A DNA stretch of 41,723 nt from contig LBUD01000001.1 of the NCBI GenBank assembly GCA_000992395.1, positions 1 to 41,723 on the forward strand. The letters run 5' to 3'. The stretch is from Parcubacteria group bacterium GW2011_GWA2_38_13. GTDB taxonomy: Bacteria; Patescibacteriota; Patescibacteriia; Buchananbacterales; GWA2-38-13. Shown here piece by piece: positions 7,392 through 35,687 of this stretch (position 1 is the first letter of the stretch; each line of letters begins with the position of its first letter). Both the position numbers and the translations under genes were made by a program. The notes beneath the pieces were generated by a model. The model did not search any database. It saw nothing but the letters and a program-made list of their open reading frames with translations, and was not told where the DNA came from.

Positions 7392-8447
7392 ATGAACACA
7401 AATGTAGGAATTGTTATTACAACAATGGATAGGGCGGAATTCATCAAACGGCAGCTTGAATATTATGCCAGCGCCAATAGCCCGCATACTGTTTATATAG
7501 GCGACTCCAGCAACCCCGAACAAGTCGCTAAAATTGAAGAATCAATAGCAAGGTTTAAAAATAAAATTAAAATCGTTTACAAATTTTTTCCAAAAACAGT
7601 TGGCGTTCAATTGTGCGCCCAACAAATGATTGACGCAATAACTGAAAAATATTTTGCTATAATAGGCGATGATGATTTTCAAATCCCGTCTTCCCTCACA
7701 AAATGCGCTGAGTTTTTGGAAAATAATCCCGACTACGCAACGGCGCATGGCCATGCTGTCGCGATTAGGGTCAAAAACAATTCTGTATACGGAGAGTTGT
7801 CCAAAATCAAAGATTATCCGGAACCCGAAATAAAAAATGAAAGCGCGCAGGATAGAATAGTAAATTATTTAGAACATTATTACCCGACAATTTTTTCAGT
7901 CACCCGGCTTGAAGTTATCAAAGAAGGCTATAAATATTCTGACTCCATTACGGACAAATCTTTTTCATCGGAAATGTTGCCCTGCGCACTCGGGATTGTG
8001 GCGGGAAAATCAAAACTCATTGATTGTCTGAGTTTTGTAAGGCAAATACATGACGGCAGATATCTCCTGCCCGACATGTATGACTGGATAACGCAAAATG
8101 ATTGGAGCAAGGAATATCAAATTTTTCAGGAAATAATGATAAGAGCCATTGCCAAAAAAGACGCCATACCGGAGAAGCAGGCGCAAAGAGCCCTGAAAAA
8201 AGGTTTCTGGACTTATTTGAATATACAAATGTCCAGAGAAATTTATGAAGTATTCCCAGTAGACAAAAAAATAAGCATGAAAAATCTTATAAGACAAAAA
8301 TTTCCTTTTTTAATACCTCTTTACAAAATCGTTAAACCGATGTTTTCAAAAAAACGTTGGCTGCATGCCGAGGTGATAAATCCGCAATCGCCATATTATC
8401 AGGATTTCAAAGCAGTGAAAGATAGTATTGAACAAATTCCAAAATAA
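7392..8447 (+). CDS. GT-A (family 2-like) glycosyltransferase-domain protein
   Basis: N-terminal VGIVITTMDRAEF...YIGDSS and a DxD-like AIIGDDDFQIP, as in GT2-type folds. The C-terminal half is unassigned. Confidence 0.5.
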   Translation: MNTNVGIVITTMDRAEFIKRQLEYYASANSPHTVYIGDSSNPEQVAKIEESIARFKNKIKIVYKFFPKTVGVQLCAQQMIDAITEKYFAIIGDDDFQIPSSLTKCAEFLENNPDYATAHGHAVAIRVKNNSVYGELSKIKDYPEPEIKNESAQDRIVNYLEHYYPTIFSVTRLEVIKEGYKYSDSITDKSFSSEMLPCALGIVAGKSKLIDCLSFVRQIHDGRYLLPDMYDWITQNDWSKEYQIFQEIMIRAIAKKDAIPEKQAQRALKKGFWTYLNIQMSREIYEVFPVDKKISMKNLIRQKFPFLIPLYKIVKPMFSKKRWLHAEVINPQSPYYQDFKAVKDSIEQIPK

Positions 8448-8451
8448 ACCT

Positions 8452-9216
8452 ATGAAAAATATTCGCATAATCCCGCGCCTTGATATCAAGGGTCCGAATC
8501 TGATCAAAGGCATCCATACTGAGGGGCTGCGAGTTTTAGGCAACCCAAAAGAATTTGCAAAAAGATATTATGAAGAAGGCGCTGATGAAATCATTTATTT
8601 GGACACGGTTGCCAGCCTGTACCAGCGGAATTTGGATTTTGATCTATTAAAAACAGTGGCGGAACAAATTTCCATTCCATTAACGGTAGGCGGCGGTATC
8701 CGATCAATTCACGATATTAATAACGCTCTGCGAGCCGGAGCCGATAAAGTGGCGATCAATACCTATGCCGTTTCTCATCCTGAATTTCTGGCCGAGGGCG
8801 CGAAAAAATTCGGTTCGCAGTGTATCGTGCTTTATATAGAAGCAAAAAAAATCATGCCTGGCAAATGGGAAGTTTATACGGACGGCGGGCGCGAAAGGAC
8901 GGGCCTAGACGTAATAGAATGGGCGAAAAAAACTATTGATCTTGGCGTTGGCGAAATTTTAATCACTTCGGTTGATTTTGACGGTACGCGCAAAGGTTTT
9001 GACACAGACCTTGTATCCGCAATAACCGGTTTCGCTCCCATTCCGGTGATTGCCCACGGAGGCGCAGGAGATTTTATATCGGTGAAAAATATTATTACAC
9101 AAGGCCATGCCGATGCCGTGGCGATTTCATCGGTACTCCATTACAAAGATTATTCTTTAAAAGATTTAAAAAAATATTTAAACACGGAAAATATTAATGT
9201 AAGGGCTGTATGTTAA
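8452..9216 (+). CDS. hisF: HisF-like cyclase subunit (AglZ/HisF2-type, acetamidino-sugar modification)
   Basis: ATG at 8452 (MKNIRIIPRLDIKG). Motifs GADKVAINT and GEILITSVDFDGTRKGFD of imidazole-glycerol-phosphate synthase HisF. The context is glycan, not histidine, genes. Confidence 0.85.
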   Translation: MKNIRIIPRLDIKGPNLIKGIHTEGLRVLGNPKEFAKRYYEEGADEIIYLDTVASLYQRNLDFDLLKTVAEQISIPLTVGGGIRSIHDINNALRAGADKVAINTYAVSHPEFLAEGAKKFGSQCIVLYIEAKKIMPGKWEVYTDGGRERTGLDVIEWAKKTIDLGVGEILITSVDFDGTRKGFDTDLVSAITGFAPIPVIAHGGAGDFISVKNIITQGHADAVAISSVLHYKDYSLKDLKKYLNTENINVRAVC

Positions 9217-9851
9217 AGCAAAAACATGTTACAATTATCGATTATGGCGTAGGCAATCTCCACAGTATTGTCAAGGCGGTCGGGAATTTTACCGAAAAAG
9301 TTTTTGTCAGTGAAGATCCGCAGGCTATTGAATCGGCTGATGCGATTATTTTGCCCGGAGTAGGATCATTCCAGTCGGGCATGGAAGGGTTGAATGTCCG
9401 GAATCTGGTTCCAAGCGTAAAAAAATATGTTGCCAGCGGAAAGCCAATGCTGGGAATTTGTCTCGGAGCGCAAATCATGCTTGGCAAAGGATTTGAATTC
9501 GGCGAATTTGACGGGCTCAATATTATACACGGCAAGGTAATTAAATTTCCCGTTCTTGAAAATAATGAAAAAATCCCGCATGTCGGCTGGAATTCTATTT
9601 ATCCTAACGCAGATAAAATATGGAACGATTCCATATTAAAAAACCTTGATCCCCTGTCAAGCGTCTATTTTGTCCATTCGTATATTCTGGTTCCGGAAAA
9701 TAACAAAAACATTTTTGCCAAAACAAAATATGGCGGTTATGAATTTTGTTCCGTAATCAGATCCGGCAACATATACGGATGCCAATTCCATCCTGAGAAA
9801 AGCGGAAAAATCGGCCTTGAAATTATTAAAAATTTTCTTGAACTTATTTAA
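9210..9851 (+). CDS. hisH: HisH-like glutamine amidotransferase subunit
   Basis: Class I GATase triad motifs GICLGAQIM, HVGWNS, QFHPEKSG. Overlaps the hisF-like gene by 7 nt. Confidence 0.85.
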   Translation: MLKQKHVTIIDYGVGNLHSIVKAVGNFTEKVFVSEDPQAIESADAIILPGVGSFQSGMEGLNVRNLVPSVKKYVASGKPMLGICLGAQIMLGKGFEFGEFDGLNIIHGKVIKFPVLENNEKIPHVGWNSIYPNADKIWNDSILKNLDPLSSVYFVHSYILVPENNKNIFAKTKYGGYEFCSVIRSGNIYGCQFHPEKSGKIGLEIIKNFLELI

Positions 9852-9855
9852 CCAT

Positions 9856-11067
9856 ATGGATCAAAAATACGGAAAATACGGGCTCCCAACGGAAGTGCAA
9901 TTTTGCAAAAAATGCGTGATTTCCAATCAACGCCCCAATTCTGCCGTGGAAATAAAAAATACCAAGGATACCAAAAAAGAAACAATCAACTTTGACTCCG
10001 AGGGTATCTGCGATGCTTGCCGTTTTGCCGAATATAAAAATAATACGATAGATTGGGAGAAACGGGAAAAAGAGCTTATGGCGCTTTGTGATAAATTTCG
10101 CAGCAAGGATGGTTCTTATGACTGTATTATCCCGGGATCCGGCGGCAAGGATAGCGGTTATGTATCCCATGTCTTAAAATATAAATATGGCATGAACCCC
10201 TTGACGATCACATGGGCTCCGCACCTTTATACAGATATTGGATGGAAAAATATGACAAATTGGATTCATAAAGGAGGATTTGACAATATTTTATTTACTC
10301 CCAATGGCAGAGTCCATCAACTTCTCACGAAAATCGCTTTTGAAAATCTCCTGCATCCTTTCCAGCCTTTTATGATAGGTCAAAGAGGAATAGGCCCTAA
10401 ATTTGCCGCACTGTATAAAATACCACTGGTATTCTATGGGGAAAACCAAGCAGAATACGGCAATAAAATTGAAGAAAATGATAGTCCAACAATGCAACAT
10501 AAATTTTTTGCCGAAGATTCTGGCTTAGATAATTTATATTTAAGTGGCGTCTTCGCGAAGGAAATTATATCTACATACAGCATAACGACTAAAGATCTTA
10601 ATCCTTATTTGCCTATAACCCGATCGGCCATAGAACGCAACGGAATAGAAGTGCATTATATTAGCTATTATTTAAAATGGGATCCACAAGAAAATTTCTA
10701 CTACTCGTCAAAAAATAACAGTTTTCAGGCCAATGACGAAAGAACCGAGGGTAGCTATTCAAAGTATGCCAGTATTGATGATAAAATCGATAACTTCCAT
10801 CATTATACGTATCTCATTAAATTCGGCATGGGACGAGCTACATTTGATGCCTCTCAAGAGATCAGAAACCACAAAATAACTCGCGAAGAAGGGGTGGCGC
10901 TTGTGAAAAGATTTGACCAAGAATTTCCGAAAAAATATTTTAAAGAGTATCTTGAATATATAGATATATCCGAGGAAAAATTTTGGCAACTTATAGATGC
11001 CGCGCGCCCCGGCCATCTATGGAGAAAAAATAATGGGTCGTGGGAATTAATTCATCAAGTAAATTAA
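9856..11067 (+). CDS. N-acetyl sugar amidotransferase (PP-loop ATPase; PseA/WbpG-like)
   Basis: ATG at 9856. N-terminal Zn-ribbon (FCKKCV...CDACRF). PP-loop IIPGSGGKDSGYV. Sits directly after the HisF/HisH pair, as in known acetamidino-sugar loci. Confidence 0.85.
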   Translation: MDQKYGKYGLPTEVQFCKKCVISNQRPNSAVEIKNTKDTKKETINFDSEGICDACRFAEYKNNTIDWEKREKELMALCDKFRSKDGSYDCIIPGSGGKDSGYVSHVLKYKYGMNPLTITWAPHLYTDIGWKNMTNWIHKGGFDNILFTPNGRVHQLLTKIAFENLLHPFQPFMIGQRGIGPKFAALYKIPLVFYGENQAEYGNKIEENDSPTMQHKFFAEDSGLDNLYLSGVFAKEIISTYSITTKDLNPYLPITRSAIERNGIEVHYISYYLKWDPQENFYYSSKNNSFQANDERTEGSYSKYASIDDKIDNFHHYTYLIKFGMGRATFDASQEIRNHKITREEGVALVKRFDQEFPKKYFKEYLEYIDISEEKFWQLIDAARPGHLWRKNNGSWELIHQVN

Positions 11068-12113: not shown

Positions 12114-12117
12114 AAAT

Positions 12118-13274: not shown

Positions 13275-14135
13275 ATGAAAACCATACTTATTATCGGGGG
13301 CACTGGTTATATTGGAGAGTATGTTACCAATTTCTTGAAAAAACATAAAGGGTTAGATCTTATCGTTATTCATAAATCCGAGCCGGTACACAATAAAGTG
13401 CGGGGTGTCCATTATTATAAGCTCAACCTTTCAGAAAAGAAGCTGAAGCTTCCTCCTAAGCTTGCTCAATTTGATGCCATAATCATATTAACCAAATCGG
13501 ATAAAAGCATTATGAATAACATTTGCCGGGTCATCCTGCCACAAGCAAAAAAAATAATTTTTGCCTCATCAATACTTGTTTATCCTTCACGTAGAGGAAA
13601 AATAACCGAAAAAGTCTCACCAAAACCAGTGACTGTATACGAAAAAAACAAAATCTTCGAGGAAAATATTCTTGCGCGATACGCCAAAAAAAACAGAATA
13701 CCCCTCATTGTTGCCCGGCTTGCCAATGTGTATGGCGATATAAAAAATAAGGGCGTTGTTTCAAAAATATTTGAAACGATGCAAAAAAATCAAGAATTTA
13801 AAATGAATAGATTCGGCAACAAAAAAAAGGATTACATTTTTATTGAAGATGCGGCAGAATTTTTATGTCGCTTGGTTTTAATAATACCGCGATCAAAAAA
13901 AGAAATATACAACGTTTGTACGGGAAAAGGTTACTCTATGCTGGAACTTATATCTTTGATTGAAAAAATAATAGAAAAAAAATTGGCGTATACTTTCTAC
14001 GACGGCAAGAAGAACAAGCAATTTATCGTCGGAGAAAATAAAAAAATCGTAGAAACGACGGGTTATCATCCCCATGATATCATGTCGGGTCTTAAAAAGA
14101 CATATAATAACTTCGCATCTAAAAATTTTTCTTAA
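13275..14135 (+). CDS. NAD(P)-dependent epimerase/dehydratase-family SDR (candidate 4-ketoreductase)
   Basis: ILIIGGTGYIGEYV glycine-rich loop; YxxxK (VYEKNK). 286 aa. Confidence 0.75.
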   Translation: MKTILIIGGTGYIGEYVTNFLKKHKGLDLIVIHKSEPVHNKVRGVHYYKLNLSEKKLKLPPKLAQFDAIIILTKSDKSIMNNICRVILPQAKKIIFASSILVYPSRRGKITEKVSPKPVTVYEKNKIFEENILARYAKKNRIPLIVARLANVYGDIKNKGVVSKIFETMQKNQEFKMNRFGNKKKDYIFIEDAAEFLCRLVLIIPRSKKEIYNVCTGKGYSMLELISLIEKIIEKKLAYTFYDGKKNKQFIVGENKKIVETTGYHPHDIMSGLKKTYNNFASKNFS

Positions 14136-14148
14136 TTCATTACTTTCT

Positions 14149-17588: not shown

Positions 17589-18299
17589 ATGTTTAACGAT
17601 AAAAAAATTCTAGCAATTATTCCAGCCAGAGGTGGCTCAAAGCGACTGCCAAGAAAAAATATCAGGCCTTTGGCCGGAAAGCCGTTATTGGCATATTCAA
17701 TTGAAGCCGCAAGGTCATCGCAATATATTGATCGTATCATAGTGTCAACAGAAGACATGGAAATTGCAAATATTGCAAAAAAATTTGGGGCTGACGTACC
17801 GGCTTTACGGCCCATGGAACTTGCCGAGGACGCCACAAAATCAGATGATGTCTTGAAATATACTGCTGAATATATGGAGTCAAAAGAAAATTATATACCT
17901 GATATCATCGTTTTAATCCAGCCCACAAGTCCACTTGTATCCGCTGAAGATATTGACAAAACTGTTGAAACGCTTATCGCAGGAAATTCTCATTCATCAT
18001 TGACTGTGTGTGAAATTACTGAAAGACCGGAATGGATGTATCGGCTTAATGGCAATGTTGCTTCTCCCTACATCCAGGGCGAAGTTCCCTATAGGCACCA
18101 AGACATGCAAAAACTGTATCGAACCAATGGCGCTGTTTATTGCGTCAAGCGTGAAATATTATTAAAAAAAGGAATACTCGTAGACAAAGAAAGTTTGCGG
18201 GTATATATAATGCCCAAAGAGAGATCTGTGGACATCGACGACATTAATGATTTCAACTATGCAGAAACGCTTATCGAAAACAATAAAAATACACAATAA
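17589..18299 (+). CDS. neuA: CMP-nonulosonic acid synthetase (acylneuraminate cytidylyltransferase family)
   Basis: N-terminal AIIPARGGSKRLPRKNI signature; QPTSPL; 236 aa. Confidence 0.85.
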   Translation: MFNDKKILAIIPARGGSKRLPRKNIRPLAGKPLLAYSIEAARSSQYIDRIIVSTEDMEIANIAKKFGADVPALRPMELAEDATKSDDVLKYTAEYMESKENYIPDIIVLIQPTSPLVSAEDIDKTVETLIAGNSHSSLTVCEITERPEWMYRLNGNVASPYIQGEVPYRHQDMQKLYRTNGAVYCVKREILLKKGILVDKESLRVYIMPKERSVDIDDINDFNYAETLIENNKNTQ

Positions 18300-19326
18300 G
18301 ACTATCGGATACAAACACCCCGTCTTTATTATCGCTGAAGCTGGCGTTAACCATAACGGCCGGCTTGATCTCGCCCTTAATCTTGTAGATGCTGTTTCTG
18401 AAAGTGGCGCCGATGCTATTAAATTTCAAACATGGAAAGCGGAGCAATTAACGACAAAATCAGCAAAAATGGCGGCGTACCAAAAAAAGAATATGGGTGT
18501 TGAAAAGTCCCAATTTGACATGCTGAAAGGATTGGAACTCCGAGAGGATTTTTTCGAACCTATAATGAAGCGATGCCGTGAAAAAAATCTTATTTTTCTC
18601 TCCACTCCTCATGGCGGATTTGAAGCTGTGGATTTTTTAGAAAAATTAGATATTCCGGCTTATAAATTCGGCTCTGGCGACCTTACCAATATTCCGGTTT
18701 TGGAACACGCGGCGCGCTACCAAAGGCCCATGATAATTGGAACGGGAATGGCTAACATGGATGAGGTAAAAAATGCGATTGATTGTATTAAAAATCAAGG
18801 AAACAATGATATCATAGCTCTTCATTGTACGACAAATTATCCCTGCCCCCCAAACGAGATAAATCTCATGGCGCTAATAACGATGAAAAAAAAATTAGAT
18901 GTTTTGGTGGGATATTCCGACCATACACTTGGAATCCAGACCCCCATAATGTCTGCCACGCTTGGCGCCTGTGTTATAGAAAAACACATAACCCTGGATA
19001 GGGACATGCCGGGACCCGATCACTTGGCATCTACCGAGCCCGATGAATTCAAAAAAATGGTCGACGCATTAAGGCTTGTAAAAACCATTCTCGGCTCAAA
19101 CCAAAAAAAACCCAATCAAAGTGAAATCGCTATCATGGAAATAGCAAAAAAAAGCATTGTATCAACAAAAAATATAAAAAAGGGAGAGGTTTTTACAAAA
19201 AATAATATAGGCATTAAGCGTCCGGGAAACGGCATTGAGCCTAGGTTTTATTTTGATATACTCGGAAAAATATCGAAGACAGATGTGGCGGAAGATTCGT
19301 TAATTCAAAAAGAGCATTATGAATAA
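18259..19326 (+). CDS. neuB: NeuB-family nonulosonic acid synthase, copy 2 (with SAF domain)
   Basis: IIAEAGVNHNG, STPHG, HCTTNYPCP, GYSDHTLG, EKHIT, IKKGEVFT...IKRPGNG. Carries a ...MAAYQKKNMGVEKSQFDML... segment absent from copy 1. The start is 18259 or 18247; both overlap the neuA 3' end. Confidence 0.85.
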   Translation: MQKRLSKTIKIHNKTIGYKHPVFIIAEAGVNHNGRLDLALNLVDAVSESGADAIKFQTWKAEQLTTKSAKMAAYQKKNMGVEKSQFDMLKGLELREDFFEPIMKRCREKNLIFLSTPHGGFEAVDFLEKLDIPAYKFGSGDLTNIPVLEHAARYQRPMIIGTGMANMDEVKNAIDCIKNQGNNDIIALHCTTNYPCPPNEINLMALITMKKKLDVLVGYSDHTLGIQTPIMSATLGACVIEKHITLDRDMPGPDHLASTEPDEFKKMVDALRLVKTILGSNQKKPNQSEIAIMEIAKKSIVSTKNIKKGEVFTKNNIGIKRPGNGIEPRFYFDILGKISKTDVAEDSLIQKEHYE

Positions 19327-20461
19327 AAAGAAAAAAATATTAATTATTACCGGAAGCCGCGCGGAATACGGTTTGCTGAAACCTATCATAAAGGGACTCA
19401 TGAAAAACAAAAAAATAGAACCACATCTTTTGGTTACAGGAATGCATACCTTGAAAAAATTCGGCTTTTCGGTCAATGAAATAATACAAGATAAAATGCC
19501 AATAAAAGCTGTGGTAAAAATTTTAGAAAAAAACGATATGCTCATTTCTTTAACAAAGGAAATACTTGGCATACGAAAATGTTGCTCTTCATTAAAACCC
19601 GATCTCATTCTGGTTCTAGGAGACCGCGATGAGGCCTTTGCCGGTGCTATTGTGGGAGGTCATATGAGAATACCGGTTGCCCATATCCACGGGGGCGACG
19701 TGACTGGATTTGTCGTTGATGAATACATACGCCACTCAATAACAAAATTTTCCCACCTTCACTTTGCAGCCAGCAAAAAAAGCTTTGATCGTATCATAAG
19801 GCTCGGCGAGGAAAGGTGGAGGGTCTTTGTCTGCGGGGCTCCGGGGATAGATAGCATACGCCAAGGAAACTTTGCATCGAAAAATTCTATAGCAAAAAAA
19901 TTTGGATTTGATAAAAATAAAAAATGGCTTTTAATCATTCATCATCCCGCGCCTCTTGACCAAATAATATTTTTACGGCAGATAAGGCCGCTTCTTGAAT
20001 GCGTAAAAAACATAGATGCTGAAAAAATTATCATTTATCCAAATTCAGACACCGGCAGTAACATTTTTATAAAAGAAATACATACATGCAAAAAAAATAA
20101 TAATTTTCACATTTATAAAAATCTTCCAAAAAATGATTTTTTAAATATCATGAACAGCGCTGATGCGCTTTTAGGAAATTCAAGCGCCGGTATAATTGAA
20201 TCGGGATATTTTAATCTGCCGACCGTAAATATAGGAAATAGACAAAAAAACCGAGAAAGGGGGAGAAATGTTATAGATTCTGATTATAAAAAAAATACTA
20301 TAAAAAAAGCCATAGCAAGGGCACTTTCTCCCCAATTCAAAAAAAACTGCAAAAACATGAAAAGTCCGTATGGAAACGGCCACGCAAGCGAAAAAATCAT
20401 AAAAATTTTAGAAAAACACATTGATAATAAAAAATTATTCCTTAAAAAATTAACTTTTTAA
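19319..20461 (+). CDS. neuC: UDP-N-acetylhexosamine 2-epimerase (hydrolysing), copy 2
   Basis: HIHGGDVTGFVVDEYIRHSITKFSHLHFA and GNSSAGIIESGYFNLPTVNIG. Confidence 0.85.
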   Translation: MNKKKKILIITGSRAEYGLLKPIIKGLMKNKKIEPHLLVTGMHTLKKFGFSVNEIIQDKMPIKAVVKILEKNDMLISLTKEILGIRKCCSSLKPDLILVLGDRDEAFAGAIVGGHMRIPVAHIHGGDVTGFVVDEYIRHSITKFSHLHFAASKKSFDRIIRLGEERWRVFVCGAPGIDSIRQGNFASKNSIAKKFGFDKNKKWLLIIHHPAPLDQIIFLRQIRPLLECVKNIDAEKIIIYPNSDTGSNIFIKEIHTCKKNNNFHIYKNLPKNDFLNIMNSADALLGNSSAGIIESGYFNLPTVNIGNRQKNRERGRNVIDSDYKKNTIKKAIARALSPQFKKNCKNMKSPYGNGHASEKIIKILEKHIDNKKLFLKKLTF

Positions 20462-24219: not shown

Positions 24220-25110
24220 ATGATAATAATAAAACAGCTCAAATATATCCAAAATTATATTTATCAAAATATTCTTTTACCAAGAATATTGAATATAAAA
24301 CATAAAAATATTTTGTTAAAAAATTTGGAGTTTAAAAATGTTAAAAAAAATAAACGCTGTTTTATTATTGGCGGGGGTCCGTCTATAAATGAAATCAATC
24401 TTTCGCTTTTAAAAAATGAGGAAACATTTTGCATGAATGAGCTTGATCAGCACCCAATGTATAAGGAAATTCAGCCAAAATATCACAGTTTGATTGATAC
24501 CGCCTATTTTACCCAGCCGCTGGATTATTTTCATACCCAGCAATTCTTGAAAAAAACAAACTCCATATCGCCTGCAACTAAAATATTTATCAATATCAAG
24601 GCGAAAGAATTCATTGAACAACACAAAATGTTCACGGGTCATTGCCTCTATTATATAAGCATGCAGGGGATCATGAATGATAAGTTTGATTTTAATATTG
24701 ATATTGAAAAAACAATCCCCTTCCCCAAAAATTCCGCGCTTCTATGTTTATTGCTCGCAGTATATATGGGATATTCTAAAATCTATTTACTTGGCTGCGA
24801 GCATAATTTTTTATCAGTACATATTGCCGCTGACAAATCTCTCAGCTATGGCTGGGCTTACAAAGATGCGAGAGATGATCTTGACACCTCAAACCCCGAA
24901 GTAGTAAAAAAATATCTTGACGAAAGGCACACACACGCTAGCTACGAGTTGCAAATATCACGCGCCAAACAACTTTTCAAAAATTACCGGCTATTTTATA
25001 ATAAAGTGCAAAAACTCTATCCTTGCATAAAAATCTATAATGCCACGCCAAATAGCTTTTTGGATGTTTTCCCCACCATAAAATTTGACGATATAAAATT
25101 TCCTAAATAA
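24220..25110 (+). CDS. Candidate nonulosonic-acid (sialyl-type) transferase, GT42 / DUF115 (Maf)-like
   Basis: Three motifs resemble Campylobacter Cst-II as I remember it. CFIIGGGPSINEINLSLL matches IIAGNGPSLKEIDYSRL. ETFCMNE matches DVFRCNQ. AVYMGYSKIYLLGCEHNF matches AIALGYKEIYLSGIDFYQ. This is a from-memory comparison and needs an HMM or structure check. Confidence 0.45.
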   Translation: MIIIKQLKYIQNYIYQNILLPRILNIKHKNILLKNLEFKNVKKNKRCFIIGGGPSINEINLSLLKNEETFCMNELDQHPMYKEIQPKYHSLIDTAYFTQPLDYFHTQQFLKKTNSISPATKIFINIKAKEFIEQHKMFTGHCLYYISMQGIMNDKFDFNIDIEKTIPFPKNSALLCLLLAVYMGYSKIYLLGCEHNFLSVHIAADKSLSYGWAYKDARDDLDTSNPEVVKKYLDERHTHASYELQISRAKQLFKNYRLFYNKVQKLYPCIKIYNATPNSFLDVFPTIKFDDIKFPK

Positions 25111-25115
25111 TATTT

Positions 25116-25769
25116 ATGCTTAAAATCCTAAAAAAAATTAGAAAAAGAATCATGGAAGAGGGTCTATTTCAGACAGTAAAAAAAGCTCCTCATTTGATTC
25201 GTGTAAAAATAAAATCCATTATAAAAGATAAAAAGCCTACATTTTTTTCACGGTGGGGCGTGAGTTCTAGAAAATGGAAAAAAATTCAATTAAAACATGA
25301 ATTAAATTTCTGGAAAAACCCCCTGCAATTCCAATCGTTGGATGGATACCCAAATTTCCGAGAAAAATTATTTACAATAACGAAAAATCTCTTCTCAAAT
25401 GTTATTTTGGATTTTCCGGGCGGAAAAGTGCTTGATATCGGATGCGGGCCCGAGCTTGGATTTCTGCCATACGTGAATGCAAAATATAAAATAGGCATAG
25501 AGCCCCTGGCAGAGGAGTTACGCCAATTCTATAACTATGATGACGATATTTTACTTATTACATCCTCATGCGAACAATTGCCATTCTGTAAGGAAAATAT
25601 TGATGCCATTTACTGTACTAATGCCTTGGATCATATGCGGCGACCATATAAAGCATTGAACGAAATGTATCGGGTGCTTAAACATCATGGATATTTCGCG
25701 TTTTCTGTTGATATTGGAGGGACAAAAAAGCATCCCGTTAAAATAATGGAAAAAGATTTACGAAAATGA
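25116..25769 (+). CDS. Class I SAM-dependent methyltransferase (apparently truncated by an in-frame TGA; see findings)
   Basis: SAM motif I VLDIGCGPELG; IDAIYCTNALDHM; LKHHGYFAFSV. The in-frame sequence after the TGA continues as a plausible C-terminus up to 25874. Confidence 0.75.
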   Translation: MLKILKKIRKRIMEEGLFQTVKKAPHLIRVKIKSIIKDKKPTFFSRWGVSSRKWKKIQLKHELNFWKNPLQFQSLDGYPNFREKLFTITKNLFSNVILDFPGGKVLDIGCGPELGFLPYVNAKYKIGIEPLAEELRQFYNYDDDILLITSSCEQLPFCKENIDAIYCTNALDHMRRPYKALNEMYRVLKHHGYFAFSVDIGGTKKHPVKIMEKDLRK

Positions 25770-25895
25770 TTTCAGGGCCATCCATTTGATATTATACAAG
25801 AGGTTTGCACAACAGAAGTAGGTCATGGCTGGATTAATGTGCCCTTATATATTTTTCAAGGATATAAAAATTGAATTTCCTTCAAAGTAACATAT

Positions 25896-26636
25896 ATGAA
25901 CGAAACAAATTTTACAGACAAAAAATTTTGGAGCGAATATTATAAAGACTTTAAGCCGCAGATAATAGGAAAAATTTATTTCCATGATATTTTTGATAAA
26001 TATTTGACTCCGGATTTTTCCAAAACTGTAATTGAAATAGGCTGCGCCGGCGGTAATTATCTCTGCTATCTTGCAAAAAATTTTAATTTCCAACCATATG
26101 GTATAGATTACTCCGACGAGATAGCTAAGACCTATGCCACCTTCGAAGCCAACCGCCTTTTACCTCCAACTCTATTTAGAGAGGATATTTTTACCTGGGA
26201 AACGACCAAAAAATTTGATGTTGTATGTTCTATTGGTTTCATCGAGCATTTTGAAAACATTCATTCTGTTATAAAAAAACACGTTGATCTCTTGTCCCCC
26301 GGGGGAATGTTGATAGTATCCATGCCACACTTTGCCCACGCCCAATATATTTTTCACTGGCTGATAGACCGTGAAAATCTCAAAAAACATAATACTAAAA
26401 TTATGAATTTATCGTCACTCAAAAAATCACTTTCCGGTTTACAGATAAAGATTATCCACCTCTCATACTATAGAACATTCGGTTTTTGGACAGAAAGAAA
26501 AAATATGCAACGCTGGGAAAAAAGTATTCAATATGGGATAAATTTTTTCGGAAGAATATTAGTAAAAATTTTAGGATGGAATAAACCCAATTTTCTTTTT
26601 TCTCCGCACATTATATGCATAGCCAAAAAAATATAA
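25896..26636 (+). CDS. Class I SAM-dependent methyltransferase
   Basis: VIEIGCAGGNYLCYL (motif I); FDVVCSIGFIEHF; LSPGGMLIVSMP. Confidence 0.75.
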   Translation: MNETNFTDKKFWSEYYKDFKPQIIGKIYFHDIFDKYLTPDFSKTVIEIGCAGGNYLCYLAKNFNFQPYGIDYSDEIAKTYATFEANRLLPPTLFREDIFTWETTKKFDVVCSIGFIEHFENIHSVIKKHVDLLSPGGMLIVSMPHFAHAQYIFHWLIDRENLKKHNTKIMNLSSLKKSLSGLQIKIIHLSYYRTFGFWTERKNMQRWEKSIQYGINFFGRILVKILGWNKPNFLFSPHIICIAKKI

Positions 26637-26637
26637 T

Positions 26638-27897
26638 ATGAATAATAAAAAGCTTACAATATTAGAAATCGGAACAACGGACACAAAGGGTGGCGCTGCT
26701 TTGGTGTCGTGGGAGCTTAAAAGCATGCTTGAAAAACTCGGGCATGAAGTATATATGGCCGTAGGCTTTAAACGATCGGCTGATCCAAAAATTTTTGACC
26801 TCTTTGATGCTCCGTTAAACCGTCTCATTTCAAAAATTATCCATAAAAATTTTTATCAAAGACTCTCGCACCACATCGCATATCATAGATCAAATGATAT
26901 TTCCATCCCGTTTGCGAAAAAAATTTCTCATCTTAAAATATTGAAGGATACAGATGTTATCCACGCGCACAATCTTCATTCAAATTTTTTTAATCTTAGA
27001 GAGCTCCCCAGGCTATCCAATCAAAAACCCTTTGTCTGGACGCTGCATGATATGTGGGCATTCACCGGCCATAACGCATATACATTCGATTGCGAACACT
27101 GGCAGAGTGGCGGCTGCGCTTGCGATTTACCGGATTCAATACCGCCGCATAAAAGGAATAATACGCAATATCTCTGGGATAAGAAAAAAAAAATATTTGA
27201 AAAATCAAAACTTCACATTGTTGTTCCTTCCCAATGGCTGTATAATCTCGTAAAAAAAAGCATCCTTAAGCACCAGCCATTGACATTAATCTATAACGGC
27301 ATAGATACCGATACATATTATCCAAAGGATAAAAAATCAACGAGAGAAAAACTGGGGTTGCCATTGGATAAAAAAATTATTATGTTTTCCAGCAAAGCCG
27401 GAAAAAAATTTATAAGAAAAGGATGGGATTATGCTGAAAAAATTATTGAAGACCACAGACTTGATGATACAATTTTATTTTTATGCATCGGAGGCAAAGA
27501 ATCGGAAAGTATACGAAAAAATATCAAATATATCCCTTACATTTCGGATCCGCACCTTTTAGCTGAATATTATTCAGCCAGCGACGTATTAATATTTACC
27601 TCTATTGCTGAAAATTGCCCATTGACAGTGCTTGAAGCCATGGCATGCGGTTTGCCGGTACTCGCATTTGCCACCGGCGGTATCCCGGAACTTATCGTGC
27701 ATAAAAAAACCGGCTACGTTGCCGAGTATAAAAACAAAAATGATCTTCAGGCTGGCTTTGAATACCTCATTACCATGCCTCAGGACAAATCCAATAGCAT
27801 GACAGAAGAATGCCGAAAAAGAGTCGTGCGCAATTTCAGTCTTCCAAACATGACGCAACAATACCTAAATCTTTATCAAAAAATTCTCTATGCGTAA
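26638..27897 (+). CDS. Glycosyltransferase family 4 (GT-B, retaining-type)
   Basis: C-terminal SIAENCPLTVLEAMACGLPVLAFATGGIPELI (E-x7-E region). N-terminal ILEIGTTDTKGGAA. Confidence 0.85.
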   Translation: MNNKKLTILEIGTTDTKGGAALVSWELKSMLEKLGHEVYMAVGFKRSADPKIFDLFDAPLNRLISKIIHKNFYQRLSHHIAYHRSNDISIPFAKKISHLKILKDTDVIHAHNLHSNFFNLRELPRLSNQKPFVWTLHDMWAFTGHNAYTFDCEHWQSGGCACDLPDSIPPHKRNNTQYLWDKKKKIFEKSKLHIVVPSQWLYNLVKKSILKHQPLTLIYNGIDTDTYYPKDKKSTREKLGLPLDKKIIMFSSKAGKKFIRKGWDYAEKIIEDHRLDDTILFLCIGGKESESIRKNIKYIPYISDPHLLAEYYSASDVLIFTSIAENCPLTVLEAMACGLPVLAFATGGIPELIVHKKTGYVAEYKNKNDLQAGFEYLITMPQDKSNSMTEECRKRVVRNFSLPNMTQQYLNLYQKILYA

Positions 27898-28861
27898 ATT
27901 TCCGATGGGAATTATGTTCCATCATTTTCATAATAACCGGCATTATGGGGGGCAGGGTTCTATATCAAAAAAAGATTTTGAAAAAATTATTCATTATATT
28001 AAACCCTGGCGAATACTTGATCCCCATGACTGGATAGAACGAGTCAATCGGGGTCTATTGACAAAGAATGATCTTTGCCTGACTTTTGACGACGCGCTCC
28101 TGTGCCAATATGAAATAGCCCTGCCGATTTTAGAGAAATACAATCTCAGAGCGTTTTGGTTTGTATATTCATCCGTATTTGAGGGGGGGCTTGGCAAATT
28201 TGAAATATATCGCCTGTTCAGGTCAAAATTTTTTAAAAACATGGATGATTTTTATAAACTTTTTTTCTCAAAAATCCAAAATTCAAGGTTTGAAAAATCA
28301 GCACGGCTCAAAATATCTCAAGTCGATATTGACCGTTTCCAATATGCTTTTCCGCATTATTCAGTAAACGACATCAGATTTCGCATGGTGAGAGATAAAA
28401 TATTAAACCGCAATGAGTACGAATCAATTATGGATGGAATAATCCGAAAAAAAGGGCTTACCGCAGAGCATCTTGCGAAAAATTTATGGATGACAAACAA
28501 GCACCTTAAAGACCTCAGCGATCATGGCCATGCCATAGGTCTTCATTCTTACACCCATCCAATGATTATGGGCAGTCTTTCATTTTCCACGCAAAAAGAG
28601 GAATATCAAAAAAATTTTAATCATATAGTCGAGATAACCGGCAAGCCTCCCCTCTCCATGTCACATCCGGACAATTCTTATAATGACCATACCCTCAAAA
28701 TCTTAAAACAACTAAAAATTATTTGTGGATTTCGATCCAACAAATCTCCTCCCAACCGCGGAAAAGTTAATCAAAGTCAATATGAATTAGCCCGTGAGGA
28801 CCATACGCATATAATAAAACTAATTAATAAACGAAAAAGTTATGAAAATAAACAGTCATAA
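27890..28861 (+). CDS. Polysaccharide deacetylase (NodB-homology / CE4-like)
   Basis: CLTFDDALLCQYEIALPILEKYNLRAFWFV (TFDD motif) and GLHSYTHP metal-binding His motif. Overlaps both neighbours. Confidence 0.75.
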   Translation: MRKFPMGIMFHHFHNNRHYGGQGSISKKDFEKIIHYIKPWRILDPHDWIERVNRGLLTKNDLCLTFDDALLCQYEIALPILEKYNLRAFWFVYSSVFEGGLGKFEIYRLFRSKFFKNMDDFYKLFFSKIQNSRFEKSARLKISQVDIDRFQYAFPHYSVNDIRFRMVRDKILNRNEYESIMDGIIRKKGLTAEHLAKNLWMTNKHLKDLSDHGHAIGLHSYTHPMIMGSLSFSTQKEEYQKNFNHIVEITGKPPLSMSHPDNSYNDHTLKILKQLKIICGFRSNKSPPNRGKVNQSQYELAREDHTHIIKLINKRKSYENKQS

Positions 28862-29975
28862 TGAATGGGATAAGCTCCGAGAGATTATTGTCGGCAGGGC
28901 TGAAGGCCAGACATGCCTGACCTACCCGGAATCCGAAACTTTAACCGAGGAACTTTTAGAAAAATCTACCAAGTTGGCACGAGAGGCTTTTCCGCAATGG
29001 CTGGTAGACGAAATACGCGAAGACCTGGATGGCTTATCAAAAACGCTTGAATCCTTCGGGGTAAAGGTGCACAGACCAGATACTTCACATATTAACAAAC
29101 GATTTGAAACACCATTTTTCAGGGCTTCTGGCGATCATGTATATGACGTGAGAGATCTGCATCTGGTTGTTGGGAATACTGTCATTGAATCGCCGTCGCA
29201 AGAACAGCATCGGTACTTTGAAGCCATGGGGCTTTACGATATCTGGTATGAATATTTTAAAGAGGGCTTCCGCTGGATTTGCGGGCCGAAACCCAAGCTC
29301 AAAGGCGATTATATGATCACTTACTATGAAAACGGAAAAAACCAGTACGATGATGGGCAAAAATTCATCAAACTAAAAGAAAATGAGATACTTTTTGAAG
29401 CCGCAAATACCGTAAGGATGGGTAAAGATCTTTTATATCTTGTTTCTCGCTCTGGCAATGAACTTGGAGCTAAGTGGCTTCAGAGTATTTTGGGAGATGA
29501 ATATAGAGTTCATACTACTGATAAAATTTACCGCTCGAGCCATATTGATTCCACGGCGCTTTGTCTCCGTCCCGGGCTAGTGCTTTTGAATGGCGAGAGA
29601 GTAACCCCAGATACCTGTCCAAAAGTTTTCGATAAATGGGACAAGATATATTTTCATGACATTGTCCCCGCTCCAGAAAAAACAATTGAATTCCAAAACA
29701 AAATCAGAAAGGTTGTGTATCAAAAGCTTGCGGCGCTCAATATTAAAACCGGGCTTGATTCTATCAGTTCGGACTGGATCGGAATGAATATTTTGTCAGT
29801 TGATCCAAATACAGTCATTTTAGATAAACGCCAGGTTCCGATGATAAAAATGCTCGAAAAGCACGGGATAACCCCCGTTCCCATAAGTTTCAGACATTCT
29901 TATTTCATGGGAGGCATCCACTGCAGCACGCTTGATACGGTTAGGGATTCAAAGCTTGAAAGCTATTGCGATTGA
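28842..29975 (+). CDS. Amidinotransferase (arginine:X amidinotransferase; AGAT / StrB1 family)
   Basis: N-terminal INSHNEWDKLREIIVG. Central FEAANTVRMGKDLLYLVSRSGNELGAKWLQ...SSHIDST...LRPGLVL. C-terminal active-site GGIHCSTLD. All are hallmark blocks of glycine/inosamine-phosphate amidinotransferases as I recall them. Confidence 0.85.
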   Translation: MKINSHNEWDKLREIIVGRAEGQTCLTYPESETLTEELLEKSTKLAREAFPQWLVDEIREDLDGLSKTLESFGVKVHRPDTSHINKRFETPFFRASGDHVYDVRDLHLVVGNTVIESPSQEQHRYFEAMGLYDIWYEYFKEGFRWICGPKPKLKGDYMITYYENGKNQYDDGQKFIKLKENEILFEAANTVRMGKDLLYLVSRSGNELGAKWLQSILGDEYRVHTTDKIYRSSHIDSTALCLRPGLVLLNGERVTPDTCPKVFDKWDKIYFHDIVPAPEKTIEFQNKIRKVVYQKLAALNIKTGLDSISSDWIGMNILSVDPNTVILDKRQVPMIKMLEKHGITPVPISFRHSYFMGGIHCSTLDTVRDSKLESYCD

Positions 29976-30062: not shown

Positions 30063-30782
30063 ATGAAAAATGATGAAACATTAAACGTAAATAAAAATAA
30101 TTGGGAAAATCTGTATTCTGAAAAAACGACTTTTTTGCAATATCCTGCGGATTGGATTATAAGATTCCATAATTTATATTTGAAAAAAAATCTACCAAGC
30201 GGAAAAGTGCTTGATTACGGATGCGGTACGGGCAACAATAGTATTTTCTTTCTTGACAAGGGATATGAGGTTTGGGGAATCGACGTAACCGAATCCTATA
30301 AGAAACTCGTTAAAGCCAATATGGAAAGCAGGGGCCACAACGTGTCTCTTATGGAAAAATTCGCTGTTCTCTCCCCCGATGCTAAACGATTGCCCTACGA
30401 AGACAACTTTTTTGATCTCATTGTCGCAAATCAGGTACTCTACTATCTGCCAACCGAAGAACATATTAAAAAAATCGTACAGGAATTCCACCGATGCCTG
30501 AAGCCGGGGGGTACGGTTTTTATCACCATGATGGGGCCAAAAAATTACTATATTGTGTATCATGCAAAACAGATTCTCAATAATAATGTATATGAAATTC
30601 ATTTCGATGATCCCAATGACCGGCTCAAGGGATATCGAGAATTTATCTATCTTGTGCGTGATGAAAGCGAGCTCTGCCACCTTTTCTCGGAATTCACACC
30701 GGTCAATATCGGGTATCTTGACCAAGGTTTATTCACAGTAAAATCAAATTTCCATTGGATTTTTGTGGGACAAAAAAAATAG
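30063..30782 (+). CDS. Class I SAM-dependent methyltransferase
   Basis: VLDYGCGTGNNSIFF (motif I); FDLIVANQVLYYL; LKPGGTVFITM. Ends with TAG. Confidence 0.8.
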   Translation: MKNDETLNVNKNNWENLYSEKTTFLQYPADWIIRFHNLYLKKNLPSGKVLDYGCGTGNNSIFFLDKGYEVWGIDVTESYKKLVKANMESRGHNVSLMEKFAVLSPDAKRLPYEDNFFDLIVANQVLYYLPTEEHIKKIVQEFHRCLKPGGTVFITMMGPKNYYIVYHAKQILNNNVYEIHFDDPNDRLKGYREFIYLVRDESELCHLFSEFTPVNIGYLDQGLFTVKSNFHWIFVGQKK

Positions 30783-30805: not shown

Positions 30806-30837
30806 AAAAGCTCCACCAAAATCGTGGAGCTTTTTTT
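30806..30837. terminator. Bidirectional intrinsic (Rho-independent) terminator between the convergent blocks
   Basis: AAAAGCTCCAC-CAAAATC-GTGGAGCTTTTTTT. The 8-bp stem is 30809-30816 / 30824-30831, flanked by an A-tract upstream and a T7 tract downstream. It lies between the stops at 30782 (+) and 30836 (-). Confidence 0.7.
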
Positions 30838-31693
30838 ATATTATTAAAATAAAAATAATTCCTAAAATTCCAAGCGCGAAAGCAATGTATTCTTCGATAA
30901 CAAATTTTTTATTTTCGTGAAAAAAAAACCAGCCTATAAAAATTGGGATAATTGTGCCAAAAATATTTTTCAACGGCAAAACAACTGATACGGAACCGCC
31001 AAGCTCAAAAACTCGATAGAGCGCCAAAAGCGCGCCTACAACACAAATGCTTAATGGAAATATTACAAACACATTTTTCAATTCAAGGCTTAATGGATTT
31101 TCCTTTAAAGTAATCATAAGAAATATTGACCCTAAAAAAGATCCTCCGTACCAACTTGCTAAAAATGTCTGATGAGAAACCGTGGAAGAAAAAATTTTTA
31201 GCAAAAAAGTGCTCACTCCGCCGATAATGACAATCACAAATATGTAATATAACCAACGCGATTGCGTTTTATTTTTGGCTGCATACGATGATTTGAATAT
31301 TCCCATAGACACGAAACACAGCGCAATGCCAACAATCTCAAGAGGGTTGAGCGTTTTTGCTTCCCTTAGAATAATTAAAGCCAAAATTACTGCCACGATA
31401 TCCACAAGTGGCAAAAACAAAGTGGTTTGGCTTAGGCTTGATTCTGTCGCTTTCCAAAAATAATAACTGGCAATGGCATTGAATATGCCCATAAAACCTA
31501 TAATGACCGCGGAAATGTCGAATGAAAATCCGCCTGAAAATAGGACATATGCCAATGCAAGCATCGCGGAAAATAAAAACTGATAAAATATCCCTAATGT
31601 TTTCTTTGGAAGAACATCAGTAAGCGCCTTTGTCAAAAACGAACTCCCAATCCCAAAAATTACCAAAAAAATAAAACCTATTTCCCAGCCCAT
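30836..31693 (-). CDS. Polytopic membrane protein, DMT/EamA-like permease (candidate lipid-linked sugar flippase)
   Basis: 285 aa, about 9-10 hydrophobic segments in two similar halves. GGGAGG Shine-Dalgarno (complement of 31700-31705) 6 nt upstream of the ATG. Family assignment is by architecture only. Confidence 0.45.
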   Translation of the reverse strand: MGWEIGFIFLVIFGIGSSFLTKALTDVLPKKTLGIFYQFLFSAMLALAYVLFSGGFSFDISAVIIGFMGIFNAIASYYFWKATESSLSQTTLFLPLVDIVAVILALIILREAKTLNPLEIVGIALCFVSMGIFKSSYAAKNKTQSRWLYYIFVIVIIGGVSTFLLKIFSSTVSHQTFLASWYGGSFLGSIFLMITLKENPLSLELKNVFVIFPLSICVVGALLALYRVFELGGSVSVVLPLKNIFGTIIPIFIGWFFFHENKKFVIEEYIAFALGILGIIFILII

Positions 31694-32797: not shown

Positions 32798-34139
32798 ATT
32801 TTTTTTCTTTACATTCTTGCTTGGTCTTCGGTTTTTGTAAAATCATCGATACCCCATATCCGCTTACGATACAGTATAGCGGGGCAAAAACAACGCGATA
32901 TCTGACATACCCGACTATACCTGCGGTTATAATAAAATAGCTTATTATAACAAGCGTCATTGAGCCGAATAATTTTATTTTATTTTTATACATATGCATT
33001 ATCCCCAAGAAAAAACAAAAAAATACAACGGTCTGAATAAAAAATAAAATTGGGGTTAAAAAATATTCTTTTTCCGCGTTTCTAAGGATACGCGTAAATC
33101 TCCCTGTCATGGTTTCTGAAAGCACCCAACCGTTTCCCATGGGAGATGGGATATGATACTGTGAAAAAATAATATTTTTAGGTGTTCCCAAAATCATATT
33201 TACGCTTCCTTTCAGGTGGTAGAAGAGATATTCAAAAGGGTGTTTTTTTATATAATTCATTGCCACTTTTTTTTGAATTTCTGATTTTAGGAACATATTT
33301 TCCGTTCCATCAAGGGCCTTGCCCAAAAGCTCCTCTTTCGACGCCTCCATGCTCTTGTTTTCTAATATAGATTTTACTTTTGCCGCATTGTATTCCATAA
33401 GGTTGTAGCCTTCAATACTTGTTATAGAATAATACCCAAAATTAATATAATTCCTTATTTGCCACGGAAATAATATTAATAAAAAAATAAATAGATACAA
33501 TATGCATCTACCAATACTCTCAAAAAGGCGATAATATGGAAAGAATAAAAATGGTATTATAAAAATCGGAAGGTATTGAGATACAGGCCTTATAAGTGTT
33601 GCCAAACCAAGCAATGCTGCGCTTATTATAACGAAAGAAAGGTTCCCATATTTAATCGCTTTAATAAGAAAAAATATTGACAGAGAAAAAATACAAACAA
33701 AGATTGTTTCGGCCATCAATTGTGTGGCCAAAATTGAAGCTAAGATATTTATTGAGTATAAAAAAGATGCTATCAACCCTGCCCGATGGGATTGAAATAT
33801 TTCTTTTGAAGTAAAATAAATTACAATGCCTGTCGCCACATCAATTATTATCTGAAATAACAGCGTGAGCCAAATCTTTATTCCAAAAATATAAAAAATT
33901 ATTGCTAAAAAAATAGGATATACAGGAGTTCGAAAACCATCGAATGATTGAAAAGATTTATTTGTCAGCAAATCTATCGCAAGCCGATAGTACTGGGTCG
34001 CATCCGAGACAAGAACGCTTTGCGTAACTGCCGAGCCTTTCCACGGCTGCAACGCAAAAAAGAAAATAATCCGCACCAAAAAAGCAAGGATAATTATATA
34101 CAACAAATGTTTATTATAAATAATGTTATTTTTTTTCAT
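32778..34139 (-). CDS. GT-C fold membrane glycosyltransferase (ArnT/PMT_2, family 39/83-like)
   Basis: Start at M19 (34139) is preceded by a GAGGA SD-like element; the longer ORF runs to 34193. Has 10 or more TM segments. The first-loop motif [15 protein letters not shown] is typical of ArnT/PMT-like enzymes. Confidence 0.65.
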
Positions 34140-35685: not shown

Positions 35686-35687
35686 AA

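Follow-up and report, generated by a model that had tools for sequence, protein, structure and literature searches.

Nonulosonic acids (NulOs) cap surface glycans, flagellins, pili and S-layers, where phages, grazers and immune systems recognise them. Their nitrogen substituents set charge and recognition, and how the N5 acetyl group is exchanged has so far been unclear. Here we analyse a stretch of 41,723 nucleotides (nt) from Parcubacteria group bacterium GW2011_GWA2_38_13 (contig LBUD01000001.1; hereafter the window), in which a deacetylase gene overlaps an amidinotransferase gene, and compare it with the closest described systems. StrB1, the scyllo-inosamine-4-phosphate amidinotransferase of the streptomycin pathway (1bwd), uses arginine to amidinate a sugar-like ring amine. 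In creatine synthesis, the arginine-dependent amidinotransferase AGAT is followed by GAMT, an S-adenosylmethionine (SAM) N-methyltransferase acting on the guanidino compound. The deacetylases PgaB, IcaB, BpsB and PplD are secreted or periplasmic and act on polysaccharides. Finally, enzymes of the WbuX/WbuY/WbuZ, PseA/PtmG type turn NulO nitrogen substituents strongly basic, converting the acetamido carbonyl to an amidine with glutamine-derived ammonia, without deacetylation or arginine; their product is an acetamidine (e.g. Leg5Am7Ac), not a guanidine. Acetamidino NulOs are sometimes N-methylated afterwards, as in C. jejuni and Legionella (bioRxiv 10.64898/2026.04.20.719630).

On balance we favour the reading that the window's deacetylase, its amidinotransferase and the methyltransferase encoded next to them form a cytoplasmic cassette that would tailor NulOs of the legionaminic or neuraminic type by de-N-acetylation, probably at N5, followed by arginine-dependent amidination and N-methylation. 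The logic of the last two steps would be that of AGAT and GAMT. AGAT, however, amidinates free glycine, and the cassette further differs from that pair in its deacetylase, its generic class I methyltransferases and its location in sugar clusters. The cassette consists of the following features.

27890..28861, + strand: CE4 de-N-acetylase (PgaB/IcaB/PplD-like), predicted cytoplasmic, 323 amino acids (aa); Pfam PF01522 and fold match
28842..29975, + strand: amidinotransferase of the sister clade of StrB1, 377 aa; phmmer against the PDB and neighbour-joining (NJ) tree
28842..28861, + strand: overlap of the deacetylase stop region with the amidinotransferase start, 20 nt, read from the sequence
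30063..30782, + strand: class I SAM-dependent methyltransferase of 239 aa, encoded at the end of the + strand operon; Pfam Methyltransf_11/25/23
30806..30834, unstranded: terminator-like hairpin with an 11-bp stem, then a T run; consensus scan only

The first-pass annotation of the window had described the two overlapping open reading frames (ORFs), and they run as it gave them: the amidinotransferase ORF starts with an ATG (28842) within the deacetylase gene, which ends in a TAA stop at 28859-28861. The motifs it quoted are all present, LCLTFDDALL and GLHSYTHP in the deacetylase and MKINSHNEWDKLREIIVG, LLYLVSRSGNELGAKWLQ, SSHIDST and GGIHCSTLD in the amidinotransferase. Judged from their Pfam and PDB matches, given below, both are real genes and not chance ORFs.

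The amidinotransferase was assigned by comparison with solved structures. Its phmmer matches in the PDB were StrB1 (1bwd, 2.2e-72), SxtG (1.2e-56), AGAT (2.7e-47) and HsvA (5.5e-44), with two aligned stretches spanning residues 3-375, i.e. the full length. It has no family-specific Pfam or NCBIfam model, its matches there being sub-threshold or weak ones to arginine deiminase and dimethylargininase; neither it nor the deacetylase matches an NCBIfam equivalog, all scores lying far under the cut-offs. Among 5.8 billion proteins searched, its homologues fell into 1475 clusters (E<=1e-10), and the best 120 of these (63-100% identity, 370-403 aa) carried the label 'hypothetical protein' or a generic AGAT/StrB1 name. 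Scanning a single genome from each GTDB species yielded 75 loci. What we call the clade comprises the 40 loci (L002-L040 and L043) at 46% identity or more to the window protein; the other 35, StrB1-like, served as controls.

In the NJ tree the clade, to which the window protein belongs, was monophyletic and sister to the StrB1-like actinomycete group. The first-pass annotation had called the family uncommon in bacteria outside secondary metabolism, which does not hold: this enzyme clade proved to be widespread in uncultured environmental bacteria. It spans at least 13 phyla, and all 40 members come from metagenome-assembled genomes (MAGs) or single-amplified genomes. Hosts include Patescibacteria (Giovannoni-, Yanofsky-, Harrison- and Saccharibacteria, Paceibacterota), Rokubacteria, Binatia, Planctomycetota, Chloroflexota (Dehalococcoidia, SAR202), Omnitrophota, Acidobacteriota, Spirochaetota (Leptospiraceae), Latescibacterota, Alpha-, Beta- and Gammaproteobacteria (several SAR11), Prochlorococcus, Actinomycetota and a DPANN archaeon.

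Residues expected of an amidinotransferase are largely intact. The putative catalytic Cys361 and His234 (AGAT C407/H303, StrB1 C332/H227) are invariant in the alignment and in all clade loci, and the putative guanidino-binding Asp105 and Asp236 (AGAT D170/D305, StrB1 D108/D229) are conserved. The triad Asp (StrB1 D179, AGAT D254, motif FDAAN) is replaced by Glu186 (FEAAN) in the window protein. The 'full set' announced by the first-pass annotation is therefore not canonical at this one position, and of the catalytic Cys, His and Asp residues whose loss was checked by alignment the Cys, the His and both guanidino-binding Asp are retained. Glu186 is found in 37 of 39 scorable clade members. Because L013 and L015, which form one small sub-branch, keep Asp, the two residues look interchangeable at this position; the change is a conservative one. 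Among 27 close homologues (74% mean column identity), E186, H234, D236, R253 and C361 are invariant; R253 aligns with AGAT R322, which binds the alpha-carboxylate of arginine or ornithine. This residue hints indirectly at arginine as the amidino donor. So does a single locus, L021 (an Acidobacteriota MAG, 9968-12254), where the amidinotransferase gene, without deacetylase or methyltransferase, is followed by one for ornithine carbamoyltransferase, an enzyme that would recycle the ornithine by-product.

StrB1 is the closest solved relative, at roughly 38% identity by eye, and shares the fold family, the Cys and His of the active site and both Asp residues that bind the guanidino group. The window protein differs in belonging to a separate monophyletic clade, in its triad Glu and in about 23 extra residues between 275 and 309. 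The settings differ as well: StrB1 belongs to actinomycete antibiotic clusters, whereas the window clade occurs, accompanied by a deacetylase and a methyltransferase, in NulO clusters for primary surface glycans, and deacetylase and methyltransferase partners of the cassette type were found in 0 of the 35 StrB1-like loci. Within the StrB1-like group, an actinomycete sub-branch (L062, L064-L070 and L072; Streptomyces, Amycolatopsis, Streptacidiphilus, Lentzea and Actinokineospora) reads H-V-G-T-T, with Gly in place of the second guanidino-binding Asp (window D236, StrB1 D229), which suggests altered chemistry or a pseudo-enzyme.

The pairing of the two genes is conserved. To assess synteny, we searched the loci by tblastn with every window protein and, separately, clustered the ORFs called in them. 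Of the 40 clade loci, which span at least 13 phyla, 35 encode a deacetylase homologue no more than 2.3 kb from the amidinotransferase, compared to 0/35 StrB1-like control loci (Fisher p=3.8e-16). In 31/40 the two genes directly adjoin, in either order; all but one of these pairs share a strand, and most gaps fall in the range of -16 to +40 nt (e.g. -16, -1, 0, 9, 18). Most of the deacetylase homologues (31 of 35) are 35-52% identical to the window protein; those of L013, L015, L028 and L040 are divergent.

The deacetylase was identified as a CE4 enzyme by family, motif and fold. It matches Polysacc_deac_1 (PF01522) at 62.2 bits against a cut-off of 23.1 (E 6.2e-17). In a family alignment of 25 sequences (44-81% identity), D67 and D68 (TFDD) and H219 and H223 (HSYxH) are invariant, and the family also keeps an N-terminal MFHHFH with invariant H11 as well as R302 and D304. 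In the PgaB-type subgroup of CE4 the catalytic-acid His lies near the N-terminus. H11 stands about 56 residues before TFDD, a spacing from D67/68 that resembles that of PgaB His55 to Asp114/115. An AlphaFold2 model (pLDDT 87.9) gave as its top Foldseek matches PplD (6dq3, 5e-11), PgaB (3vus, 6e-9), IcaB (4wcj, 3e-8) and BpsB (5bu6), with ArnD weaker. The Asp-His-His metal site and the catalytic Asp are common to these enzymes and the window family, whose conserved N-terminal His motif makes H11 a candidate for the catalytic acid.

Predicted location and substrate set the family apart from these structural matches. No signal peptide or transmembrane segment was found in the window deacetylase or its homologues, whose conserved core begins at residue 9, and no signal peptide in the amidinotransferase, whose core begins at residue 3. 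The deacetylase is thus predicted to be cytoplasmic and not a secreted polymer deacetylase, and its family occurs in nucleotide-sugar and NulO operons. Between motifs 1 and 2 it has some 110 additional residues (roughly 94-211), all helical, which also distinguish it from PgaB, IcaB, BpsB and PplD; this insertion could plausibly serve as a lid for a small soluble substrate.

A third cassette member had been overlooked by the first-pass annotation. On the other side of the amidinotransferase, 20 loci encode a 408-aa class I SAM methyltransferase (median gap 27 nt), and the window and six further loci have in that place one of about 240 aa (homologues 28-56% identical). L017 has yet another class I methyltransferase beside the amidinotransferase. 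A methyltransferase is present in 26-27 of the 40 clade loci, the architecture being either methyltransferase, amidinotransferase, deacetylase or the reverse, so that the amidinotransferase is almost always central. By this recurrent arrangement, the methyltransferase gene at 30063-30782 appears to complete the cassette. Searched against the PDB, the two kinds of methyltransferase matched generic class I methyltransferases only, and the Pfam results for the methyltransferases neighbouring the cassette held no GAMT family match.

The cassette is embedded in NulO biosynthesis. Next to the deacetylase and the methyltransferase, the commonest genes within 10 kb of the amidinotransferase in the 40 clade loci are those for a CMP-NulO synthetase (29), NeuB (24), an SDR dehydratase (24), DegT (20), NeuC (18), GFO/IDH/MocA (17), an SDR (13) and a PtmE-like CBS-nucleotidyltransferase (10). 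The pattern is clearest in L237-L239, three long-read contigs (0.8 to 4.5 Mb) whose annotation comes from independent precomputed gene calls and Pfam; there the deacetylase/amidinotransferase pair lies mid-operon and neighbouring genes overlap by 1-4 nt. The order there is methyltransferase, GFO, CTP_transf_3 (LegF-like), SDR, unknown, NeuB, Epimerase_2 (NeuC), PglD/LegH-like acetyltransferase, deacetylase, amidinotransferase, PtmE-like CBS-NTP transferase, 4,6-dehydratase and DegT. As annotated, the operon encodes all of a legionaminic-type pathway, and the pair sits at its centre.

The window, too, has the makings of a NulO cluster, with a NeuB-type synthase, a NeuC-type epimerase and a CMP-NulO synthetase all present in one block.

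17589-18299, + strand: CMP-NulO synthetase; NCBIfam PseF, 1.8e-55
18247-19326, + strand: NeuB-type NulO synthase; NCBIfam NeuB_NnaB, 427.6 bits, cut-off 399.65
19319-20461, + strand: NeuC-type hydrolysing 2-epimerase; NCBIfam NeuC_NnaA, 406.8 bits, above cut-off

Homologues of this block (17589..20461) are the commonest NulO-gene neighbours of the cassette in other loci, and it is the likely supplier of the cassette's substrate. The deacetylase, amidinotransferase and methyltransferase genes are the final three of a + strand array of about 30 kb that ends at the hairpin, which separates the cassette from a convergent gene at 30836-31693.

We also examined a reciprocal sample of 80 metagenome loci (L157-L236), gathered from the deacetylase family and unbiased towards the amidinotransferase. 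Both flanks measured 1300 nt or more in 43 of them, and the amidinotransferase was adjacent in 22 of these; the other 21, with four loci that had less flank, formed a set of 25 without it. In 20 of these 25 a 264-aa Formyl_trans_N protein is encoded directly downstream of the deacetylase (e.g. L197 5001-6800, L211/L212 5001-6712). It matches the Pfam family at 1.5e-9, and its best solved relatives are the sugar N-formyltransferases PseJ (top) and VioF. One further locus has a GNAT instead. Many of the loci without an amidinotransferase carry NeuB, NeuC, CMP-transferase or WbuXYZ. In the deacetylase tree, the formyltransferase-partnered sequences form largely one cluster nested among the amidinotransferase-partnered ones, with a few switches. 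This pattern identifies the deacetylase, at the level of gene content, as a NulO-cluster enzyme with interchangeable N-modifying transferase partners, as would be expected of an enzyme that exposes an amine for re-derivatisation. It also lends support to the two-step idea of the first-pass annotation, deacetylation followed by amidination, which came through both of its computational checks, on the conservation of the pairing and on the catalytic residues. The target it had proposed needs refining: in place of a generic amino sugar, a NulO intermediate is the most likely.

A described system resembles the formyltransferase-partnered sister module. From Ca. Kuenenia stuttgartiensis, a 2026 preprint reports CMP-NulOs in which one amine is free and the other formylated, and a Leg-type cluster that includes 'a deacetylase and a formyltransferase' (bioRxiv 10.64898/2026.04.20.719630). 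It differs from the cassette in having a formyltransferase partner and not an amidinotransferase.

The enzyme families, the intact catalytic residues, the conserved cassette and the NulO context are direct observations. For donor, acceptor, position, the order of the second and third steps and the final product, we infer the following scheme. First, the metal-dependent CE4 enzyme would strip the N-acetyl group from a NulO intermediate, either the free NulO or the CMP-NulO and most probably at the GlcNAc-derived N5 acetamido, exposing a primary amine. Second, the amidino group of L-arginine would pass to Cys361 as a thiouronium intermediate, with release of ornithine, and then onto the amine to give a guanidino group. 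Third, the SAM methyltransferase would N-methylate the product. The resulting zwitterionic or cationic 5-(N-methyl)guanidino NulO would be attached to a surface glycoconjugate by glycosyltransferases of the cluster. We favour N5 as the target of the deacetylase because the 4-amino group (the future N7) is born free and needs no deacetylase, so that the GlcNAc-derived acetamido is the only one that needs erasing; N5 is also the logical target since L237-L239 carry a LegH-like N-acetyltransferase for the 4-amino group.

Several findings weigh against this scheme. First, five of the 40 clade loci have no deacetylase, and about a quarter have no NulO genes within their 10-kb flanks. Second, neither a DegT aminotransferase nor a LegH-like acetyltransferase was found in the 41.7-kb window, which is why its NulO type is uncertain; it may be Neu-like with N5 alone, or Leg-like with genes elsewhere. 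Third, the known enzymes structurally closest to the deacetylase (PgaB, IcaB and PplD) have extracytoplasmic polymers as substrates, and the Kuenenia deacetylase is matched to the window family by its described cluster architecture. Fourth, the methyltransferase is generic, and its sequence would fit N- and O-methylation alike. Lastly, transferase chemistry is not guaranteed, because the triad Asp of the amidinotransferase is a hydrolase-like Glu.

An alternative in which the amidinotransferase acts on a NulO amine that was never acetylated, e.g. that of a 4-amino-4,6-dideoxy-hexose (the future N7), survives best, and we still consider it unlikely. The deacetylase would then have a separate job, such as the removal of formyl or O-acetyl groups or the modification of a polymer or lipid-linked glycan, and the adjacency would reflect co-regulation. 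Amidination at N7 would need no deacetylase; five of the 40 loci have the amidinotransferase alone; CE4 includes O-deacetylases; and the structural relatives PgaB, IcaB, PplD and ArnD act on polymers or lipid-linked sugars. The window deacetylase, however, is predicted to be cytoplasmic, with neither signal peptide nor transmembrane segment, and its adjacency to the amidinotransferase is very tight, often overlapping, in both orders and across phyla. The alternative partners of the deacetylase, formyltransferase and GNAT, are N-transferases too, and in L237-L239 the 4-amine already has its LegH-like acetyltransferase.

Rather more doubtful is that the amidinotransferase makes a free guanidino metabolite, whether a creatine-like compound by way of guanidinoacetate (as with AGAT and GAMT), homoarginine or an amidino-polyamine, that is later appended to the glycan or is unrelated to it. 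The characterised relatives AGAT, SxtG and HsvA, i.e. all save StrB1, use free small amines, an amidinotransferase with a methyltransferase mirrors creatine synthesis, and L021 and L022 have an amidinotransferase without glycan genes. This explanation leaves the near-obligate deacetylase partner unaccounted for, and among the conserved companions of the cassette there is no ligase, ATP-grasp enzyme or acyltransferase that could attach such a metabolite. The cassette is moreover embedded within Leg operons, and the acceptor of StrB1, its closest relative of solved structure, is a sugar-like aminocyclitol phosphate.

A Glu in the catalytic triad is the arrangement of superfamily hydrolases such as arginine deiminase and DDAH, which raises the improbable case that the protein is itself a Cys-His-Glu hydrolase editing a sugar amidine or guanidine, e.g. 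turning an acetamidino or guanidino group into an amide or ureido group. Glu186 stands in for the transferase-type Asp in 37/39 members, the sole Pfam and NCBIfam matches are the weak ones to arginine deiminase and dimethylargininase, and at several loci the cassette directly borders WbuXYZ acetamidino genes. The full-length similarity, however, is to amidinotransferases (StrB1, 2.2e-72) and not to hydrolases, and R253, the Arg that would bind the arginine carboxylate, is conserved. L013 and L015 retain Asp, hence Asp and Glu seem interchangeable, and WbuXYZ occurs in 6/40 loci only, so the supposed substrate would usually be missing.

Chance adjacency in a crowded glycan locus, with an overlap devoid of functional meaning, is effectively refuted by the synteny statistics (35/40 versus 0/35 controls, both orders, at least 13 phyla, one archaeon), common as overlapping starts and stops are in compact operons and many as there are in the window.

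For the tailoring of NulOs by the three-gene cassette, the data point to a dedicated cytoplasmic de-N-acetylase family with interchangeable N-transferases and an arginine-dependent guanidinylation branch. We hold it to be an evenly poised possibility that there is a natural class of sialic-acid-like sugars in which a guanidino or N-methylguanidino group replaces the N5 acetamido, made by a portable and widespread cassette, with the CE4 family as an 'eraser' that allows amidino, formyl or acyl groups to be swapped in. The superfamilies are known; their combination and the predicted product appear to be undescribed. A natural guanidino-NulO, or an amidinotransferase tied to NulOs, was not found in the full-text literature searched. 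A chemical analogy is offered by zanamivir, synthetic 4-guanidino-Neu5Ac2en, in which a sialic-acid scaffold carries a guanidino group; it differs in being man-made, in having the guanidino group at C4 of an unsaturated ring and in having no biosynthetic relationship to the predicted product. If the scheme is right, a permanently cationic, zanamivir-like sialic acid analogue would join the natural glycan repertoire of very abundant uncultured organisms, with CPR/Patescibacteria, SAR11, Prochlorococcus, SAR202, Acidobacteriota, Planctomycetota and DPANN archaea making guanidino NulOs, and the three genes could be used for chemoenzymatic guanidino-NulO synthesis.

The predicted product would be easily misread by mass. 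An acetamido/guanidino NulO (C12H22N4O7) has a computed mass of 334.1488 compared to 334.1376 for Leg5Ac7Ac (C13H22N2O8), and because the two forms are only 11.2 mDa apart, this isobaric trap could let the guanidino form pass as an ordinary di-N-acetyl sugar in low-resolution mass spectrometry surveys. The N-methyl form (C13H24N4O7) computes to 348.1645, with a residue mass of 330.1539. A NulO of residue mass 330.154 and composition C13H22N4O6 has been described in C. jejuni NCTC 12662 and was read by the authors as an acetamidino NulO with H replaced by NH2 (bioRxiv 10.64898/2026.04.20.719630). Words beginning 'guanidin' or 'amidino' are absent from the main text of that paper. The C. jejuni sugar is isomeric with the predicted N-methylguanidino/acetamido NulO, which may be a coincidence or a lead.

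Besides the cassette and the block at 17589..20461, the window encodes a second set of NulO genes, the acetamidino triad and, directly upstream of the deacetylase and in the same operon (24220..27897), a run of glycan genes.

8428..11067, + strand: WbuZ/WbuY/WbuX-type acetamidino triad; NCBIfam WbuX 383 bits (above cut-off), HisH, HisF/WbuZ
11040-12113 and 12118-13272, + strand: second NeuB/NeuC pair; NCBIfam
13275-14135, + strand: SDR epimerase; NCBIfam
14074-15159, + strand: PseB-like 4,6-dehydratase; NCBIfam
24220-25110, + strand: MptE/Maf-like protein, weak match; Pfam/NCBIfam
25116-25769 and 25896-26636, + strand: two methyltransferases; Pfam/NCBIfam
26638-27897, + strand: GT4 glycosyltransferase, overlapping the deacetylase start by 8 nt; Pfam/NCBIfam

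The separate acetamidino triad that the first-pass annotation had mentioned is real, with WbuZ, WbuY and WbuX homologues at 8428-11067. WbuXYZ co-occurs with the cassette in 6 other loci and directly abuts it in L008, L009, L025 and L034, where one NulO could carry both acetamidino and guanidino groups and be net cationic. The two NeuC-type genes of the window score 406.8 and 397.5 bits with NeuC_NnaA, both above the cut-off. Two NeuB/NeuC pairs thus stand beside one CMP-NulO synthetase only; the NeuB at 18247 is of the type usually found beside the cassette elsewhere, and in L005, L012 and L030 the neighbouring NeuB is of the type at 11040. The window also holds GFO/IDH/MocA oxidoreductases, a NodU-like carbamoyltransferase and many methyltransferases and glycosyltransferases. 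A promoter scan of the window was at chance, with 24 sites compared to 25 expected.

The NodU-like carbamoyltransferase (584 aa, 20469-22223) is encoded between the second NeuC gene and two GFO/IDH/MocA genes and may add a carbamoyl decoration to the same sugar. A few cassette loci (L015, L022) encode homologues of it, as do L214 and L235, which are of the formyltransferase type. Among viruses, 80 IMG/VR contigs (L077-L156) encode amidinotransferase homologues of about 338 aa at 30-40% identity, in FDAAN and FEAAN forms, and 15 matches to the NodU-like protein were found in these 80 loci. None of them has a deacetylase or NulO genes near the amidinotransferase. A phage-borne cassette was accordingly rejected for the IMG/VR collection, whose contigs carry a distant amidinotransferase clade only.

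Two further observations concern other genes of the window. First, three ORFs resemble B12-binding radical-SAM methyltransferases (2948-4897, 6051-7388 and 15170-16621; KedN5-, HpnJ- and PhpK-like). They adjoin SIS and HAD heptose-type genes and NulO genes, their number is unusual for a surface-glycan locus, and they may point to C-methylated sugars. Second, a 521-aa amine-oxidase-like ORF at 34126-35691 is split into two called genes, of 274 and 223 aa, in the ENA version of this region (L001, 5966-7515). One segment is only 89% identical to that version, so the split is an assembly or strain difference.

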